A DNA stretch of 43,554 nt from a virus: the IMG/VR virus record IMGVR_UViG_3300017646_000004. One strand, 5' to 3'. Below, in pieces: positions 8,956 through 41,407 of this stretch. The notes under the pieces were generated by a model that saw only the letters and a program-made list of their open reading frames with translations, made no database searches and had not been told where the DNA came from. Positions within the stretch are counted from its first letter, which is position 1. Every line of letters starts with the position of its first letter. A program made the translations under genes and the position numbers.

Positions 8956-9209
8956 TCCTCCCCCTTCTCGATCACCTTGGCCTTGGCCACCGATCGATCC
9001 TTTAGCGCGATCGCGCCGGCCGTTGCCGTGATGCAGGCCGCGATCCCGGCCGGATAGGCCAGGCAGAAGCTGTCGAAGCTGGCAGTGATCTTCCCGGCCC
9101 ACACCAGCGCAGGGGCCGACACGATATAGACCACCGAGCCGAACGCGCCGATGATGCGCTGGACCTCGTATTCCCCGCCGATTCCCTTGAGGGCGTTGAG
9201 GAGCTTCAT
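8952..9209 (-). CDS. Holin candidate
   Basis: 85 aa with hydrophobic spans (IIGAFGSVVYIVSAPALVWA, AYPAGIAACITATAGAIAL) and a charged C-terminus. ATGA overlap with the endolysin stop. Confidence 0.55.
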   Translation of the reverse strand: MKLLNALKGIGGEYEVQRIIGAFGSVVYIVSAPALVWAGKITASFDSFCLAYPAGIAACITATAGAIALKDRSVAKAKVIEKGEE

Positions 9210-9763
9210 GACGATGTCCTGTAAAGCGCCTGCTCTCGCTGGCGTCGCTTGACGAGGCCGGGCAACGTCTTCCCCGCTGCTTTCACCCACTTGGGGAACT
9301 CGTTCGCCGCGCCAACATAGTCCCCCTCATTGTGCTTGCGCAGGAGGGTGGAAGTCCGAAGCGCCTCAGCCCCTACATTGAAGGCGAAGCTCACCAGCGC
9401 GGAGAACTGGTTGTCGGTCGCATTCGCGCCAACCAACTTCGCCACGGCATCTTCGAAGCGGGCGATGTCGGAGCGGAGCAGTTCATCCGCCTTCGCCTCG
9501 GTAATCACGAGGCCAGGCGATACGTCCGCTCCCGTGTGGCCATAGCCGATGGTCCACGGCGCACCTCCGGTCCCCGGATCGGGATAGGCCTTGAGGCGCA
9601 GGCCCTCGCTTTCCTTGATGATGTCGAGGCCAGCGGCATTGATCGTGCGGCGGGTCGGTTCCGTGATTCCAAGGACCTTCGCGAGCGCCCCCAACGTGAC
9701 GGGGCCTAGCTTCCCATCAGCCGGCACGCCCACATGGCGCTGAATATCGGCAAGCGTGGTCAT
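9206..9763 (-). CDS. Endolysin: peptidoglycan-binding domain plus GH24 lysozyme
   Basis: N-terminal IQRHVGVPADGKLGPVTLGAL (PG_binding_1-like), then ESEGLRLKAYPDPGTGGAPWTIGYGHT (T4/lambda-type lysozyme signature). Confidence 0.85.
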   Translation of the reverse strand: MTTLADIQRHVGVPADGKLGPVTLGALAKVLGITEPTRRTINAAGLDIIKESEGLRLKAYPDPGTGGAPWTIGYGHTGADVSPGLVITEAKADELLRSDIARFEDAVAKLVGANATDNQFSALVSFAFNVGAEALRTSTLLRKHNEGDYVGAANEFPKWVKAAGKTLPGLVKRRQREQALYRTSS

Positions 9764-10155
9764 TTCGCCTTCTCCTGCTTCTCCGCTGAGATGATGAGCT
9801 GCGCGATCTGCTTCGCGTCTCCGAAGCCCTGGACGATCGCCTCGAGCCGCAGCACCTTCGCCTCGCTCTCGGCATGGCGCTCCTGGCACTCGGCAAGGGC
9901 GGTCTCGGTGCTTGTCACCCGTTCGCGCAGGGCCGTCACCTCGATGTCGTGCCGCTCGCGCAGGTCCGCGATTTCCTTCTCCAGCCTGTCCAGAAGCTGC
10001 TGCGTGCTGCGGTCGATCCTGTCCGCCCTCTTGTCCATTCGGCCTCCCAGCCATTCGAGAAGCCAGCGGACGAACCAGATGCCGCCAGTCAGGCTGATGC
10101 CGGCCGTCGCCCCGGCAGTTGCCCACCGAGCGAGGAGTTCGAGCCAGTCGCTCAT
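9760..10155 (-). CDS. Membrane-anchored coiled-coil protein (possible holin or lysis regulator)
   Basis: N-terminal TM (AGATAGISLTGGIWFVRWLLEWL) and a long heptad-like region. ATGA overlaps on both sides. Confidence 0.5.
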   Translation of the reverse strand: MSDWLELLARWATAGATAGISLTGGIWFVRWLLEWLGGRMDKRADRIDRSTQQLLDRLEKEIADLRERHDIEVTALRERVTSTETALAECQERHAESEAKVLRLEAIVQGFGDAKQIAQLIISAEKQEKAK

Positions 10156-11051
10156 GGCAAGTCCAACAGCCGCGCCCTGAATATCTGGCGCGCCTGCTCA
10201 ACCTGGCCAGCATCAAGCCGATCGGGGATCACCACCGTTCGCCATATTTGACATCCGCCATTGACGGTCTCCGAGCCTCCAAGGCGAATCCGGGCGTTGG
10301 CGTAGGTGGAGCTTCCTCCAGACAGGACCGACCAGAAATCAGTGCGCGAAGCGACGACGCTGTCGTTTAGGTAGAGCGCCCCGTTTCCGTCGTCCGCATG
10401 CACGGTTATTGCGGCGAAGTTCCACCCCGGCGCGAGCAAGCTGGCGCTGGTCATCGACGCAGCGCCCTGGGCGCTGTTTCGTTGGCCTGTTGCCTGGAGA
10501 AACCCAGATGTGCTTCGCCGCAGATACAGGCCGGCGTTCGCGCCATTTGCAAACGTGTGTTCGAATATCCGTCTCTCGTTGGTTCCGCCGACCTGCATGT
10601 TGAACGCGCAGAGCAGCGTGAGCCCGCGAATCCCACTGAGCGCTGAACCGATCGCAGTCTGCAAGCGATCATCCGTTGCTGCCCCGCCGCGATAGAAATC
10701 GAATACTTCGATGCCGCCCGGCGTGGTGGCCAGCGCGGGTTCGGTGGCCATCGGAGACAAGTCTAGAGCGGCCCCTGCAAGAGAGTAGGCCTTCTCCACA
10801 GTGGTATCGAGGCGGATCAGGGCGGGATCGGCCCAGAAGATCGGCTCAACCCCCTTGATGGCGGTGATCTCATCCCAATCCGCGATTTGCGGCAGATAGC
10901 TGATGGCCGGGCAGGTCAGCCCGTCATCGATTGCCGCCTGGAGCGCGCCAGTGGGCGTCGGAGAAAATCCCCCGATATCGAGGATGCGCGGAAGATTGCT
11001 GATGCCTCCGGTGGCCGGCAGCGCCTGCAGGACAAGGGCCTGTGTGGTCAT
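10152..11051 (-). CDS. LamG/concanavalin-like lectin-fold protein, putative accessory receptor-binding protein
   Basis: The C-terminal half (WNFAAITVHADDGNGALYLNDSVVASR...IRLGG) looks like a LamG jelly-roll. It follows the tailspike. Confidence 0.5.
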   Translation of the reverse strand: MTTQALVLQALPATGGISNLPRILDIGGFSPTPTGALQAAIDDGLTCPAISYLPQIADWDEITAIKGVEPIFWADPALIRLDTTVEKAYSLAGAALDLSPMATEPALATTPGGIEVFDFYRGGAATDDRLQTAIGSALSGIRGLTLLCAFNMQVGGTNERRIFEHTFANGANAGLYLRRSTSGFLQATGQRNSAQGAASMTSASLLAPGWNFAAITVHADDGNGALYLNDSVVASRTDFWSVLSGGSSTYANARIRLGGSETVNGGCQIWRTVVIPDRLDAGQVEQARQIFRARLLDLP

Positions 11052-37526: not shown

Positions 37527-38408
37527 TTATATCGCCATGTGGGCGGTATGGTTTTCGACAGGAGAAAGAGCCGCCGGGTGTCCGATGGCGGAAAGGATCG
37601 CGCGACCAATCAGCTCGGGGATTTGTGGGATTACGGCGTTTCCGAGGGCCCCAGTGCGGTCCACCCGGTCGGGAATCCCATCATCCATTCGACAAATTCC
37701 GGCTTCGGGCGAATCCCAAGCATCGGTTGCCCAAGGATTGTCAGCGTGAGACATCCAGCGCCAAAGGGCGTCCCCAAGGTGCAGTTGGTGTATCCCCGTG
37801 ATTTCCGGGGAGTAGGCAATAATCCAGACGCGCTCGCGCAGATGCGGGGCGCCAAAGATGGCCGCCGGTATGATTTCCCATTCCGCATCGAGCCTGCGCC
37901 GGGCCAGCGCCCCGAGAACTTCTCCCATCCATCGATCAAGCAGCTCTGGGCTGTTCTCCAAGATGACGAAGCGTGGTCGAAGTTCGCCAATAAGGCGGTC
38001 GATTTCGAAGAAGAGGCCGGAACGTTCACCATGCAGGCCAGCGCGCGCACCCGCTGCGCTGATATCCTGGCACGGAAAACCGCCCGTGATGACATCGATC
38101 GCTCCAAGATCACCTCCGGCAAGCTCCCGCACGTCTCGGTGGCAAGGGACGTCTGGCCAGTGTTTCGCAAGGATACGACGGGGGAACTCTTCGATCTCAC
38201 AGAAGGCGACGGTTTCGAAGCCACCGGTTCTCTCCAGTCCAAGCGAAAAGCCGCCGATGCCGGAGAACAGGTCCAGCACCCTGAGCTTGCGGAAGGAAGC
38301 CGCTGGGCCAAGGGGGTCAGCCCGGCGGCAGGTATCGGACGCTGCATCAGGCACGCACGGGCGAGCCGCAGAAGGGCAATCCTTCGACGATGCAGTGAGC
38401 CCGCTCAT
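37527..38408 (-). CDS. DNA (cytosine-5)-methyltransferase
   Basis: Motif I DLFSGIGG, motif IV GGFPCQDIS, ENS, RER and motif X GNAV. Short target-recognition region. Confidence 0.9.
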   Translation of the reverse strand: MSGLTASSKDCPSAARPCVPDAASDTCRRADPLGPAASFRKLRVLDLFSGIGGFSLGLERTGGFETVAFCEIEEFPRRILAKHWPDVPCHRDVRELAGGDLGAIDVITGGFPCQDISAAGARAGLHGERSGLFFEIDRLIGELRPRFVILENSPELLDRWMGEVLGALARRRLDAEWEIIPAAIFGAPHLRERVWIIAYSPEITGIHQLHLGDALWRWMSHADNPWATDAWDSPEAGICRMDDGIPDRVDRTGALGNAVIPQIPELIGRAILSAIGHPAALSPVENHTAHMAI

Positions 38409-38650
38409 GCTGCGTCCTTGGGGAGGTGGGATTCGAGGGAAGACTTCGCCTGCCACGGCTCGACCGCCTCAAGCGTGTCGATCTGCTCCTCGGTCAGGTC
38501 GGAAATGCTGGGATGTTTCCAGCCGGTTCGTCGCAGAATGTGGATCGCAAGCGAACGAGATGGCGAGCGAACGCCGTTCAAAATCATGCTCGCATAGGAC
38601 TGGCTAATGCCGGTCACATACTGGAGTTCGGAAATGGATGGCTTCGACAT
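38405..38650 (-). CDS. Cro-like HTH regulator, first gene of the leftward early operon
   Basis: ISELQYVTGISQSYASMILNGVRSPS is an HTH. The gene is divergent from the repressor gene and has no SD upstream of its ATG. Confidence 0.6.
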   Translation of the reverse strand: MSKPSISELQYVTGISQSYASMILNGVRSPSRSLAIHILRRTGWKHPSISDLTEEQIDTLEAVEPWQAKSSLESHLPKDAA

Positions 38651-38744: not shown

Positions 38745-39086
38745 ATGGGCTATCAGGAGAAAAACGGCGGTCTGAACCATCTTCGTGCCTGGCGCGAATA
38801 CCGCAAGCTCACTCAGCAGGAATTGGCTGAGGCGGCCGATACGACCCAGCATCAGATCGCATATCTTGAGAGCGGAGAAAGGGCATTGTCCGCCAAGTGG
38901 CTCCGCCGACTCGCGCCTGCGCTAAGGATCACGCCGGGATTTCTTTTGGATCACGATCCGAACGATCTCACTGATGACATCATAGACATCTGGGCCACAG
39001 CCGATGATCGCCAGAAGATGCAGATAACAACGATCACCAAGGCCATAGTCCAAGGTGACAAAAAGACTGGAACGAATAGCAGCTAG
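38745..39086 (+). CDS. XRE-family HTH repressor (CI analogue, no peptidase domain)
   Basis: LRAWREYRKLTQQELAEAADTTQHQIAYLESGERALSAKWLRRLAPAL is an XRE HTH. The ATG lies 7 nt after GATAAT and has no SD. Confidence 0.7.
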   Translation: MGYQEKNGGLNHLRAWREYRKLTQQELAEAADTTQHQIAYLESGERALSAKWLRRLAPALRITPGFLLDHDPNDLTDDIIDIWATADDRQKMQITTITKAIVQGDKKTGTNSS

Positions 39087-39106: not shown

Positions 39107-39412
39107 GTGCACGGCGAAAAGCAAATCGCGGGCGCGGGAGTCGTCGCTGTCCTACTTGTGATGACTTTAGTGATTTGGTGGCACTCTAGTCGTGATAGTT
39201 CGCCATACGGCGCGCTTGTCAGACAGGTTGAGCGAGACCACGTCGGAAGTGCTAACGATCAATGGCTTGAGATGAAAAACCTGGCTGGAAAGTGGGAGCG
39301 AGTTGGACTTGTGTTCGGCTACATAGACGATTTCGGGGCATGCACCGACATTGCGACTGGCCTGAAAATGGTAAACCCCGTGCGTGAATATCGCTGCGCA
39401 GGGGCGAATTAA
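39107..39412 (+). CDS. Membrane-anchored small protein, paralog A
   Basis: GTG start after a G-rich RBS. N-terminal TM GVVAVLLVMTLVIWW. The C-terminal domain is about half identical to the next gene's. Confidence 0.6.
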   Translation: MHGEKQIAGAGVVAVLLVMTLVIWWHSSRDSSPYGALVRQVERDHVGSANDQWLEMKNLAGKWERVGLVFGYIDDFGACTDIATGLKMVNPVREYRCAGAN

Positions 39413-39439
39413 TCAGAGGATATAATGGGGCAGAGATAG

Positions 39440-39727
39440 ATGAAATTCGCTTTCTCAATTGCACTAGCACTCCTCTCGGCAGGTTGCGAAAATCGGCCCT
39501 ATAATGACAATATCGCCGGCTACGATGCCCTAGTTGAACATATTAAGGCGCATCGCGTTGGGCGTAACGCCGATCAATGGATTGAGATGAAGAACGTCTT
39601 CGGAGAGTGGGAGCGAACGGGGCTGATATTTGCCTACTCGGATGATTACGAGGAATGCCTAAAGGCCATAGCCGGCCTTAAAAAGGCAAATGCGGATCGC
39701 GAATATCGATGCACATCCGCCAACTAA
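39440..39727 (+). CDS. Lipoprotein, paralog B
   Basis: Signal peptide with lipobox LLSAGC. Shares ADQWxEMKNxxGxWERxGLxFxYxDD...GLKxxN..REYRCxxAN with paralog A. Confidence 0.65.
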   Translation: MKFAFSIALALLSAGCENRPYNDNIAGYDALVEHIKAHRVGRNADQWIEMKNVFGEWERTGLIFAYSDDYEECLKAIAGLKKANADREYRCTSAN

Positions 39728-39739
39728 TAGGGGCAAGCT

Positions 39740-40078
39740 ATGAGAATACGTTCGATGTCTGCCGCTGCACTAGCGCTGTGCCTTATGGCTACTCCCGCGC
39801 TCGCTGATGTCTGGGTCAACCCCCATGTCCGCAAGGATGGGACCTATGTGGAGGGGCATTGGCGGACCGAGCCCAATGCGACCCGACTCGACAACTATTC
39901 GACGCAATACAACGTCAATCCGTATAACGGAAAGCGTGGGACTGCCGATCCGGTGCCGATCACTCCCAAAAAACCAAACACCGGAATAGATATCACGCCT
40001 TACCTGCCTCCCAAGCCTATCGTGCCTGTTCCCGTGCCGCATTCAAGTTACCCCAAGAGTCGGTTGGGCTCACACTGA
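39740..40078 (+). CDS. Secreted protein (signal peptide, Pro-rich tail)
   Basis: Signal peptide ending ALA-DV. Contains VNPHVRKDGTYVEGHWRTEPNATRLDNYSTQYNVNPYNGKRGT. Confidence 0.6.
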   Translation: MRIRSMSAAALALCLMATPALADVWVNPHVRKDGTYVEGHWRTEPNATRLDNYSTQYNVNPYNGKRGTADPVPITPKKPNTGIDITPYLPPKPIVPVPVPHSSYPKSRLGSH

Positions 40079-40108
40079 AAAGGCGCATAAAGGCGCACAC
40101 CGGGAATA

Positions 40109-40468
40109 ATGGGGAATAATGCAGCTCCAGCCCTCCCCATGAAGGAGTTTTCCCGCGAGGTGTTGAAAAGCGGGGATGGCGGTGGCAAATTTGATGGCAT
40201 GAATAGTCGTGTAAACCAGAAGCTTAGCGACCTCCCCACCGCCGGCCAGATTCGAAACAACATCTGGGGTGCCGCTGCCGCGGTGCTCGGTATAATCTTG
40301 GCGGCGCTCGCGTTTGGCGGAGACCGCTTTGACGGCGGATTAGGCGCCTCATCTCTGCTCCATGAGCAAGCTGAGCAACAGGCTCAGAAAGACGCTGATC
40401 AGGACGGGCGCCTAGCGCTGATCGATCAGAAGCTTGATATCCTGATCAAGCAGACCTCAGGCAAGTAG
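40109..40468 (+). CDS. Single-pass membrane protein with a C-terminal coiled coil
   Basis: TM IWGAAAAVLGIILAALAF. The start is uncertain (alternative Mets downstream). Confidence 0.5.
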   Translation: MGNNAAPALPMKEFSREVLKSGDGGGKFDGMNSRVNQKLSDLPTAGQIRNNIWGAAAAVLGIILAALAFGGDRFDGGLGASSLLHEQAEQQAQKDADQDGRLALIDQKLDILIKQTSGK

Positions 40469-40573
40469 CCCCTCCCCTAGTATTGTATGAAGAGGGGGTA
40501 GAGGGGAGGAAGGCCGCCACTAGGACGGCCTTTCCGAACACAAGCCCGATGCTGAGGCAGAGCGGGACTATCT

Positions 40574-41407
40574 CTAGGCGGCCGACCTCGGCAAGGCTCT
40601 CTTGGCTTCACGCTCCGCTAATGCCGCCAGGGCGTTGTTGGCAATTTGCGCGGGCAGTTTCCGCTTGCTCACCTGACTTGCCAGGTAAGAAGGCATTTTA
40701 GTGGGGATATAAATCTCTCTTATCCACCGTCTGAATGTCGGTAGCGAGTCCTCCGGATAGCAGCTTGCCGGTTGGGGGTTTGAAAACGACTGCTGGAAAT
40801 AGTCCGGATAATAGTGATCGAAATATCGACGCGGGCCGAATTGATCCTCTAGGCCAGCATCCTTCCAGTGACGTCCCCAATGGAGGCCAACGCTGATATC
40901 AAGGATCATTTGCGTGCCCGGGGCCACTCCTCGCGAAATGAGGGTCGCGAAGATGTCAGCGATTTCCCGGAACACGCACCAATATCCTTCCGGGACATTA
41001 TCGTAGACAAGTGACACCCTATCCTCGAACTGCCGCCAGATCCGATCCGTGGGATCACGGCCCAGCATCCAGTCATAGACCCATTCGGTGACCTTGACTG
41101 CGAATTCTGGGGAAAGCCATTGAGCCAGGTGAATAGCAACCTGAGGGTGGACCCATGTTCCTCGCTGCTCATTTGCACCAGTTAATATGGATTGCGCCAA
41201 GAGGTCCCTGTGAATCTGCAGGGACCCTTCCAGCGCCGCGAGAAAGGCCTCTGTTGTGTCAAGGCGTCGGTACGAAGACCACTCCCTCCCTGCCGCCCGA
41301 CACATCGAGGTAGCATTGATGTAGCCGTCTTCCGCCCGCTGATGGATCAGACTACCCTGATGGGTGTGAGGGACCAAAGCGAGTTGCTTCTGGGTATCGT
41401 CAACCAC
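40574..41407 (-). CDS. KilA-N domain protein with an uncharacterised C-terminal domain
   Basis: GTG start with RBS GGAG. DGYINATSMCRAAGREWSSYRRLDTTEAFLAAL...GTWVHPQVAIHLAQWLSPEFAVKV is a KilA-N signature. Confidence 0.75.
   Translation of the reverse strand: MVDDTQKQLALVPHTHQGSLIHQRAEDGYINATSMCRAAGREWSSYRRLDTTEAFLAALEGSLQIHRDLLAQSILTGANEQRGTWVHPQVAIHLAQWLSPEFAVKVTEWVYDWMLGRDPTDRIWRQFEDRVSLVYDNVPEGYWCVFREIADIFATLISRGVAPGTQMILDISVGLHWGRHWKDAGLEDQFGPRRYFDHYYPDYFQQSFSNPQPASCYPEDSLPTFRRWIREIYIPTKMPSYLASQVSKRKLPAQIANNALAALAEREAKRALPRSAA

Follow-up and report, generated by a model that had tools for sequence, protein, structure and literature searches.

Four envelope-directed genes behind the repressor of a temperate phage, probably independent accessory genes of the lysogen

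Results

Four small genes for envelope-directed proteins lie behind the repressor

The IMG/VR virus record IMGVR_UViG_3300017646_000004 consists of 43,554 nucleotides (nt), and this whole stretch of DNA is referred to below as the window. We analysed four small plus-strand genes, named here A to D, that lie directly downstream of a gene for an XRE-family repressor (38745..39086, +). Gene A (39107..39412, +) has a GTG start, preceded by the Shine-Dalgarno-like run GAAGGGGGGGG, and encodes a protein of 101 amino acids (aa) with an N-terminal membrane anchor and a diverged 68-aa domain containing two cysteines (Cys79 and Cys97). Gene B (39440..39727, +) encodes a 95-aa lipoprotein with the lipobox LLSAG-C16, the mature part of which is a 68-aa two-Cys alpha/beta domain (Cys73 and Cys91). 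The product of gene C (39740..40078, +) is a 112-aa protein secreted through the Sec pathway, with a signal peptide at residues 1-22 (ALA before DV) and a Pro-rich tail. Gene D (40109..40468, +) encodes a 119-aa single-pass membrane protein with a transmembrane (TM) segment at residues 52-70, the motif GDRFDGG after this segment and an acidic, Gln-rich C-terminal helix. An original prediction, made from the sequence alone, had described four envelope-targeted genes on the repressor strand at this place, and all four open reading frames (ORFs) are indeed there, separated by gaps of 20 nt (repressor-A; repressor stop at 39086), 27 nt (A-B), 12 nt (B-C) and 30 nt (C-D).

A to D are taken to be real genes because each has its own homologue family: 39 clusters for B, 40 for C and 21 for D, while the exact sequence of gene A is found as a called protein and as the cluster representative P0105 in a public collection. 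The four genes are compositionally foreign relative to the phage core genes. The interval 39-40 kb is the GC minimum of the window (0.527 versus 0.604 overall), and the GC content at third codon positions (GC3) is 0.56, 0.53, 0.61 and 0.64 for A, B, C and D, respectively, compared with 0.76-0.79 in the terminase, portal and primase-helicase genes. The lower GC that had been noted for this block is thus confirmed.

No terminator-like site was found on the plus strand within the A-D block. Two GC-rich hairpins (40471..40532) occupy the space between D (+) and a convergent BstA-type gene (-); they fold as CCCCUCCCCU...AGAGGGGAGG and AAGGCCGCC-ACUA-GGACGGCCUU, and probably serve as terminators for both the D-side and the BstA-side transcripts. 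A promoter scan gave one promoter-like site inside B (39476-39505), the number of sites being that expected from shuffled sequences. A terminator-like hairpin with a T-run was also seen on the minus strand in the C-D spacer (40082-40101), again with a site count equal to the shuffle expectation; it could halt antisense transcription arriving from the BstA side.

Targeting signals of the four proteins

The targeting calls for A to D were rule-based, using the lipobox rule, hydrophobicity, cleavage-site motifs and charge flanks. In A, residues 7-25 (IAGAGVVAVLLVMTLVIWW) form a hydrophobic segment with a Kyte-Doolittle (KD) value of 2.39, and the N-terminus has neither a lipobox Cys nor an AxA cleavage site; for these two reasons the segment is probably an uncleaved anchor, as had been proposed. 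The sequence LLSAG-C16 of B satisfies the lipobox rule, and its Cys column is at least 90% conserved in a 30-sequence alignment of the close family, in agreement with the lipoprotein call. The signal peptide of C ends with ...TPALA before DV, A22 being invariant across the family alignment, and 12 Pro are found among the last 43 residues, so that the description of C as a secreted protein with a Pro-rich tail was also correct.

D contains one TM segment (residues 52-70, KD 2.23). Its charge flanks (+1 before and -1 after the segment) suggest an N-in/C-out topology. The original prediction of a single-pass membrane protein with a coiled coil therefore stands for the membrane segment; the coiled coil is weakly supported, a heptad-like pattern being limited to the last ~20 residues (LALIDQKLDILIKQ). 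None of the four proteins has more than one hydrophobic segment, and no cytoplasmic protein is among them.

A and B share a two-cysteine domain but are not recent duplicates

A and B align without gaps over the 68-aa domain (BLASTP, 35/68 identities, 51%, E 5e-26), including the motif quoted in the original prediction, which had put the identity at about half. The core of the domain is highly conserved (DQWIEM.N..GEWERTGLIFGY.DD..EC.KAIAGLK..N..REYRC.PAN), with two invariant Cys and a mean column identity of 73%. The structure and remote-homology checks that had been suggested for this domain yielded a confident fold and no relative of known function. The AlphaFold2 (AF2) model of B is a confident single domain of alpha-beta-beta-alpha-beta topology, with a predicted local distance difference test score (pLDDT) of 85. 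Foldseek searches with this model gave a best E of 1.1 against the PDB, none reaching 0.001 or less, and a best E of 0.04 against the predicted phage structures of BFVD, where all matches were uncharacterised small phage proteins. A profile of the B family found 0 matches among all PDB sequences at E up to 10. There was no match in Pfam, PHROG, NCBIfam or PADLOC for A and B, nor in Pfam for 10 distant relatives.

An exhaustive profile search of 1.84 billion representatives retrieved 244 clusters at E<=1e-3, 60 of them at E<=1e-10. Nearly all of the 244 are 85-115 aa long, with the domain at the C-terminus. When the best 149 relatives were classified by regular expressions, 73 had a lipobox and 45 a hydrophobic N-terminus without lipobox Cys (Sec signal or anchor); in the remaining 31 the anchoring was unclear or the sequence truncated. 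Since lipoprotein, Sec and anchored forms all occur as single genes, the possession of two anchors is a property of the family and not a design of this phage.

A maximum-likelihood tree placed B together with two metagenomic proteins (support 97/93). A is not the sister of B; its position was unresolved and its branch length (0.76) is five times the median (0.15). The DNA sequences of the two domains are identical at 62% of positions, and at 50% of third codon positions. The long branch of A and this low third-position identity exclude a recent tandem duplication. The two domains appear instead to result from an old divergence or from separate acquisitions, with accelerated change in A. None of the 56 loci examined has another tandem A/B pair, and a search of metagenome contigs of the Joint Genome Institute (JGI) gave no close relative of A. 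The proposal that one domain had been deliberately duplicated to occupy two membrane locations is not supported in view of the position and long branch of A in the tree and of the family-wide variation in anchoring.

The domain occurs in phages and, as single genes, in sphingomonad chromosomes

The 56 fetched loci are designated below by L numbers. B-family genes were found on a contig with terminase and Mu-Gam genes (L004), on another IMG/VR contig (L016) and on a 43.8-kb contig with DNA-ligase, HNH and RelE/HTH neighbours (L001-L003), which may be a phage. In an IMG/VR provirus of Novosphingobium barchaimii (L008/L015), a B homologue stands behind a same-strand HTH_3 repressor, opposite a cro-like gene. 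The whole row (L008:7048-9121) comprises the cro-like gene (-), the HTH_3 repressor (+), the B homologue, an 83-aa ORF, an 80-aa ORF and a 115-aa protein with a coil and a C-terminal TM segment; it is built like the row of the window, with different middle genes.

Other members of the family have no phage genes around them. They lie between a FadB-like gene and gyrB (L010/L012), after purS-purQ and adjoining TonB and a TonB-dependent receptor (L026), beside beta-lactamase, aminotransferase and riboflavin genes (L022-L025), near recJ (L027), and 36 nt downstream of a LexA-type gene with LexA_DNA_bind and Peptidase_S24 domains (L007:7206-8270). A phage-specific origin of the domain is thus not supported, since sphingomonad chromosomes also carry it, in the form of single genes flanked by housekeeping genes. 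No conserved neighbour of the chromosomal B homologues emerged from an all-against-all BLAST or from PDB sequence searches with two unknown neighbours. A motif-pattern scan of one genome per species (185,579 species) identified ten B-family loci, most of them in Sphingomonadales. From this small number and from the absence of a conserved neighbour in these searches, the B family appears to be a sporadic accessory periplasmic protein that is occasionally carried by phages, neither a housekeeping protein nor a phage-only one. In one family member, from Pleomorphomonas koreensis DSM 23070 (L011:8001-8279), an in-frame stop replaces the conserved Gln of DQW; this gene may be a pseudogene, or the stop a sequencing error.

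The families of B, C and D recur separately behind repressors

In other alphaproteobacterial phages, genes of the B, C and D families were each found again behind same-strand repressors, confirmed by Pfam HTH or S24 matches. This recurrence fits with an expression of these genes together with the repressor. The four genes had been proposed to form a single module. Yet in tblastn searches of A to D and their neighbours against the 56 related loci, two of the four families were never found together. The nearest to an exception is the Novosphingobium barchaimii provirus L008, where the B homologue shares the post-repressor row with a distant XhlA-like protein. Searches of 50,697 GenBank phage records with B, C and D (tblastn) gave no match.

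In the family alignment of C, a Sec signal and the motif RKDGTYVxGH..PN...DNYS..N.NPY.G are the defining features, and the tails that come after them vary. The sole named match of C in Pfam, PHROGs, NCBIfam and PADLOC was phrog_29674 (E 1.4e-12), of unknown function. Its AF2 model is poor (pLDDT 70, predicted template modelling score 0.30), as might be expected of a short motif with a disordered tail. PF08789, precomputed for a few relatives, sits in their C-terminal tails, outside the shared motif, and was rejected as a clue. The closest homologue of C (54% identity, 129 aa) starts 18 nt behind the repressor of the phage locus L055, the cro and repressor genes of which resemble those of the window. 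In this locus (L055:5328-7593), the C homologue is followed by a 128-aa lipoprotein with a coiled segment (LTISG-C), which differs from B, and then by MazE/PemK. In L056, a further C homologue follows an HTH_3 repressor at a distance of two genes.

Proteins of the D family usually comprise 140-148 aa, with an invariant GDRFDGG just after the TM segment and a conserved C-terminal helix (QDAKL.LMDQKLDILIKQT). The D protein of the window has a shorter N-terminus than the family, and its database gene call starts at Met11. D matched no Pfam, PHROG, NCBIfam or PADLOC model, XhlA included, and 19 of its relatives had no match in Pfam. Relatives of D stand one or two genes behind a same-strand repressor in the P2-like proviruses L043-L045 (S24/HTH repressor, X1 of 91 aa, then D) and likewise in L047 (HTH_3 repressor) and L050. 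The N-terminal half of D resembles a 109-aa coil-plus-TM protein that ends the post-repressor row of L029, a phage whose repressor is 55% identical to that of the window. Short D-like proteins match the XhlA-type 'hemolysin' family phrog_1193 weakly (E 1.7e-4 for L029, 5.3e-4 for L008); together with the L050 relative, such matches span E 1.7e-4 to 7e-3. Most D relatives are preceded by a small cytoplasmic partner ORF of 85-102 aa, which is X1 (phrog_26297) in L020 and L043-L045, X2 in L017 and L018, and another small ORF in L029, L046 and L047.

D homologues were also observed as passengers of an IS1595-family unit of ~1.85-1.96 kb, bounded by 23-25-nt inverted repeats (core TATCCCCTTGGCATACG) and present at L020:6403-8359, L018:6511-8355 and L017:6628-8469. 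Its cargo is X1 or X2 (91-102 aa), the D homologue and, in L017 and L020 only, a 56-aa ORF; the Zn_ribbon_IS1595/DDE_Tnp_IS1595 transposase is encoded on the opposite strand. No two of the three units share a genomic site, and one lies within a P2-like prophage of Novosphingobium aquae. A LexA-type gene adjoins the D-carrying element in L020 (8428-9120), in a genome different from that of L007. The inverted-repeat motif is not present in the window, so that an IS1595 remnant beside its D gene was rejected.

The genes lie in a variable slot of a temperate phage genome

The window encodes an integrase, a Mu-Gam-like protein, an endolysin, a DNA-ejection protein, head closure and major head proteins, a portal, a large terminase, a primase-helicase, a DnaD-like helicase loader, RusA and a C5 methyltransferase. 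Both contig ends (1-120 and 43435-43554) lie in the same array of 15-nt (pentapeptide) repeats, with an exact overlap of 27 nt. For this reason the sequence is probably closed or complete; that is, the window is probably an essentially complete or circular temperate phage genome of ~43.5 kb, broken in the repeat. Its portal is at most 36% identical to that of any deposited phage, and many of the matching records are alphaproteobacterial phages (Caulobacter, Pelagibacter, Roseobacter). The host is probably a sphingomonad or another alphaproteobacterium.

The repressor (113 aa) matches HTH_31 (E 4.5e-9), HTH_3 (E 4.4e-8) and the PHROG transcriptional regulators/repressors. Its start is likely at 38745, because relatives (L034-L037) match from residue 1 of the 113-aa form; the longest ORF, starting at 38607, overlaps a small Cro-like HTH gene. 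This Cro-like gene (38405..38650, -; HTH_3 E 1.6e-4) is divergent from the repressor, and a closely similar 77-aa Cro-like protein is encoded at the same position in L055. On the other side of A to D, the convergent half of the slot contains the BstA-type abortive-infection gene with a KilA-N N-terminus (40574..41407, -; phrog_6287 E 1.3e-63, PADLOC BstA E 2.3e-54, KilA-N E 2.6e-22), a 72-aa ORF and a gene for a Panacea-domain protein with a small membrane partner.

Since BstA adjoins A to D, we consider the slot to be an accessory or defence hot-spot. In other phages, the region downstream of cI is a mosaic hot-spot in which rexAB and bstA are found, and the promoter that serves it shows high activity in lysogens (PMC8585504). 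In the phages of L029-L042, the repressors of which are 46-55% identical to that of the window, the slot is filled by other small TM or secreted ORFs. The features of accessory cargo are thus found here: the position after the repressor, a deviating composition and a content that varies among related immunity regions. In two relatives of this phage, L029 (7640-8283) and L046 (6497-7396), the operon after the hot-spot starts with a protein that runs into a regular short-repeat array (DADAxA/PT-type); these proteins parallel the pentapeptide-repeat gene of the window.

Discussion

A to D are probably independent accessory genes of the lysogen

We conclude, with some confidence, that A to D are independent envelope accessory genes ("morons") expressed in the lysogen. 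In the proposed scheme, a hot-spot of ~3.9 kb would extend from the repressor to a second, OL-like control region, A to D filling the half oriented like the repressor, and BstA, the 72-aa ORF and PanT/PanA the convergent half. Each of the four genes would have been acquired independently, from its own uncharacterised family. Read-through from the maintenance promoter of the repressor would yield a repressor-A-B-C-D transcript ending at the hairpins 40471-40532, as suggested by the short gaps, the lack of an internal terminator-like site on the plus strand and the hairpins after D; if so, the four proteins would be made in lysogens. A is predicted to reside in the inner membrane with its domain in the periplasm, B to be lipid-anchored at a periplasmic face, C to be in the periplasm or at the cell surface, and D to be in the inner membrane, N-in, with its C-terminal helix in the periplasm. 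The altered envelope of the lysogen might then hinder other phages at adsorption or DNA entry, or counter other envelope-acting agents, the four proteins probably acting separately rather than as one machine. By likeness to Ltp, Sie2009, Llp and Cor, superinfection exclusion at adsorption or DNA entry is plausible as the most natural benefit. That at least one of the four is an exclusion or defence protein is possible, though we lean towards doubting it.

Several points weigh against this interpretation. Read-through from the repressor promoter is an assumption, and the folding energy of the hairpins is not above that of shuffled sequences (z -0.95), without a T-run. None of the four proteins can be connected with a receptor or with the entry of phage DNA. 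The B family is not confined to phages, being present in at least five distinct chromosomal contexts without phage genes, so that a general periplasmic role unrelated to phages may be envisaged. D relatives are carried in IS1595-family elements, and the proximity of a D gene to a repressor can therefore be accidental, as in L017.

We considered the possibility, put forward in the original prediction, that the four proteins form one superinfection-exclusion or receptor-masking module, in which the same binding domain would act at two membrane locations with C and D as partners. This would account for four consecutive products all directed to the envelope, for the different anchors on the common domain of A and B, and for a position that parallels that of the exclusion genes ltp and sie2009 (PMC3952083) and of the abortive-infection genes rexAB and bstA (PMC8585504). 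Yet the loci examined did not yield a second instance of two of the four genes together or of the A/B tandem, nor did the JGI metagenome contigs contain a close relative of A. Moreover, A diverged long ago and is not the sister of B, all three anchoring modes occur as single genes across the family, and A to D resemble no known exclusion protein, either in sequence or, for B, in a fold search. We consequently hold a common module to be distinctly improbable. Of the original prediction as a whole, the genes, their envelope targeting, the paralogy, the composition and the slot stood up to analysis, and the single module and the deliberate duplication did not.

Another explanation is that the A/B domain belongs to a general periplasmic family, present in sphingomonads and in other bacteria. 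Its members could be stress proteins, for instance, or inhibitors of, or immunity proteins to, an enzyme or toxin active in the periplasm. Captured from a host, the phage copies would then add dosage or a variant specificity to the lysogen, unrelated to phage entry. Single-gene members in several chromosomal contexts devoid of phage genes agree with this, as do the 244 clusters of nearly uniform size (85-115 aa) in lipoprotein, Sec and anchored forms. The core, with its 73% mean column identity and two invariant Cys, is what one would expect of a folded, disulfide-bonded periplasmic binder, and the sporadic distribution (ten loci in 185,579 species) is typical of accessory or immunity genes. 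However, no conserved neighbouring gene, for a toxin or an enzyme for instance, was seen in any of the contexts, several members are in phages or proviruses, and no relative of known function was found by fold or sequence; this explanation is an unlikely one in our estimate. D, for its part, might be an XhlA-, holin- or RexB-like membrane effector, for example of abortive infection or addiction, working with the small cytoplasmic partner encoded upstream, A to C being unrelated cargo. Such a partner (85-102 aa) precedes D in most relatives, and the arrangement X-D(-Y) as an IS1595 passenger in three genomes is typical of selfish or defence cargo. Furthermore, the short D-like proteins of L029 and L008 match phrog_1193, and D shares its N-terminal half with the L029 protein. 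Against this, none of the PHROG, Pfam, NCBIfam and PADLOC models matches D itself, and its links to XhlA are weak, passing through coiled-coil and TM segments, in which similarity is easily spurious. In the window, the secreted protein C takes the place of an X-type partner ahead of D, and the endolysin is 30 kb away. We would not expect this explanation to be the right one either. Not all of these alternatives are mutually exclusive with independent accessory genes, the interpretation that we prefer.

Significance of the four genes

Few phage genes are made in every lysogen, and those that follow a prophage repressor are among them; defence systems such as rexAB and bstA have come from this slot time and again. 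The present analysis brings out three uncharacterised families behind the repressors of alphaproteobacterial phages, characterised by the two-Cys domain of A and B, the RKDGTYV motif of C and the GDRFDGG motif of D. They are well-defined candidates for envelope-level anti-phage or lysogenic-conversion functions in sphingomonads, the phage biology of which is, to our knowledge, little studied. That at least one of the two families lacking a Pfam model (the A/B domain and D) represents a new kind of defence protein of prophages or mobile elements is a speculative notion, to which we give limited credence. The A/B domain could be a new envelope-level exclusion or immunity domain working from any of three anchoring modes. 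The GDRFDGG family, present in phage immunity regions and as IS1595 cargo and accompanied in most cases by a small cytoplasmic partner, could represent a membrane effector of a new, Rex-like type. As phage accessory regions go, the present one is ordinary, and the families that occupy it lack a profile model; its value at present lies in the list of candidates, and it is not yet mechanistically surprising.

Comparison with known systems

D resembles XhlA-type proteins (PF10779, phrog_1193) in having an N-terminal helical or coiled segment followed by one TM segment. It differs from them by the additional GDRFDGG motif and a C-terminal helix of ~50 aa after the TM segment, and by the lack of a profile match. 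Furthermore, unlike XhlA, it is not part of a lysis cassette with holin and endolysin, the endolysin gene being at 9206-10216, 30 kb from D.

Llp of phage T5 and Cor of phi80 and N15 are small outer-membrane lipoproteins that block the FhuA receptor. B shares with them a mature part of ~60-80 residues, a lipobox, a Cys pair and the fact of being phage-encoded. No sequence or structural similarity was detectable between them (Foldseek against the PDB, best E 1.1; profile search, 0 PDB matches), and the B family, in contrast to Llp and Cor, is widely found outside phages and also in Sec-type and membrane-anchored forms.

Ltp of the Streptococcus thermophilus phage TP-J34 and Sie2009 of lactococcal phages are exclusion proteins encoded in the lysogeny module (PMC3952083). 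The likeness lies in the small size, the lipoprotein or membrane character and the position next to a repressor or integrase gene; Ltp and Sie2009 are expressed in the lysogen and act at the envelope (PMC3952083). Both come from Gram-positive hosts, and B has no sequence or fold match to any PDB chain. The tandem helix-turn-helix-like repeat domains of the Ltp type are not present in B, the AF2 model of which is a single alpha-beta-beta-alpha-beta domain.

PADLOC gave no matches for A to D. RexA and RexB form a two-gene pair of a cytoplasmic protein and a polytopic protein with four TM segments, in contrast to A to D, with their single hydrophobic segments at most and no cytoplasmic member. 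RexAB and BstA work by abortive infection, from within the cell, whereas A to D are envelope-directed and share no sequence with them; the BstA gene of the window itself is on the opposite strand, convergent with A to D. The closest likeness to rexAB of lambda and bstA of BTP1 (PMC8585504) is that of the slot: a location directly downstream of the repressor, a variable content and a deviating base composition. To this are added, for A to D, the strand of the repressor, the very short gaps and the presence of a BstA homologue in the same slot of this phage.

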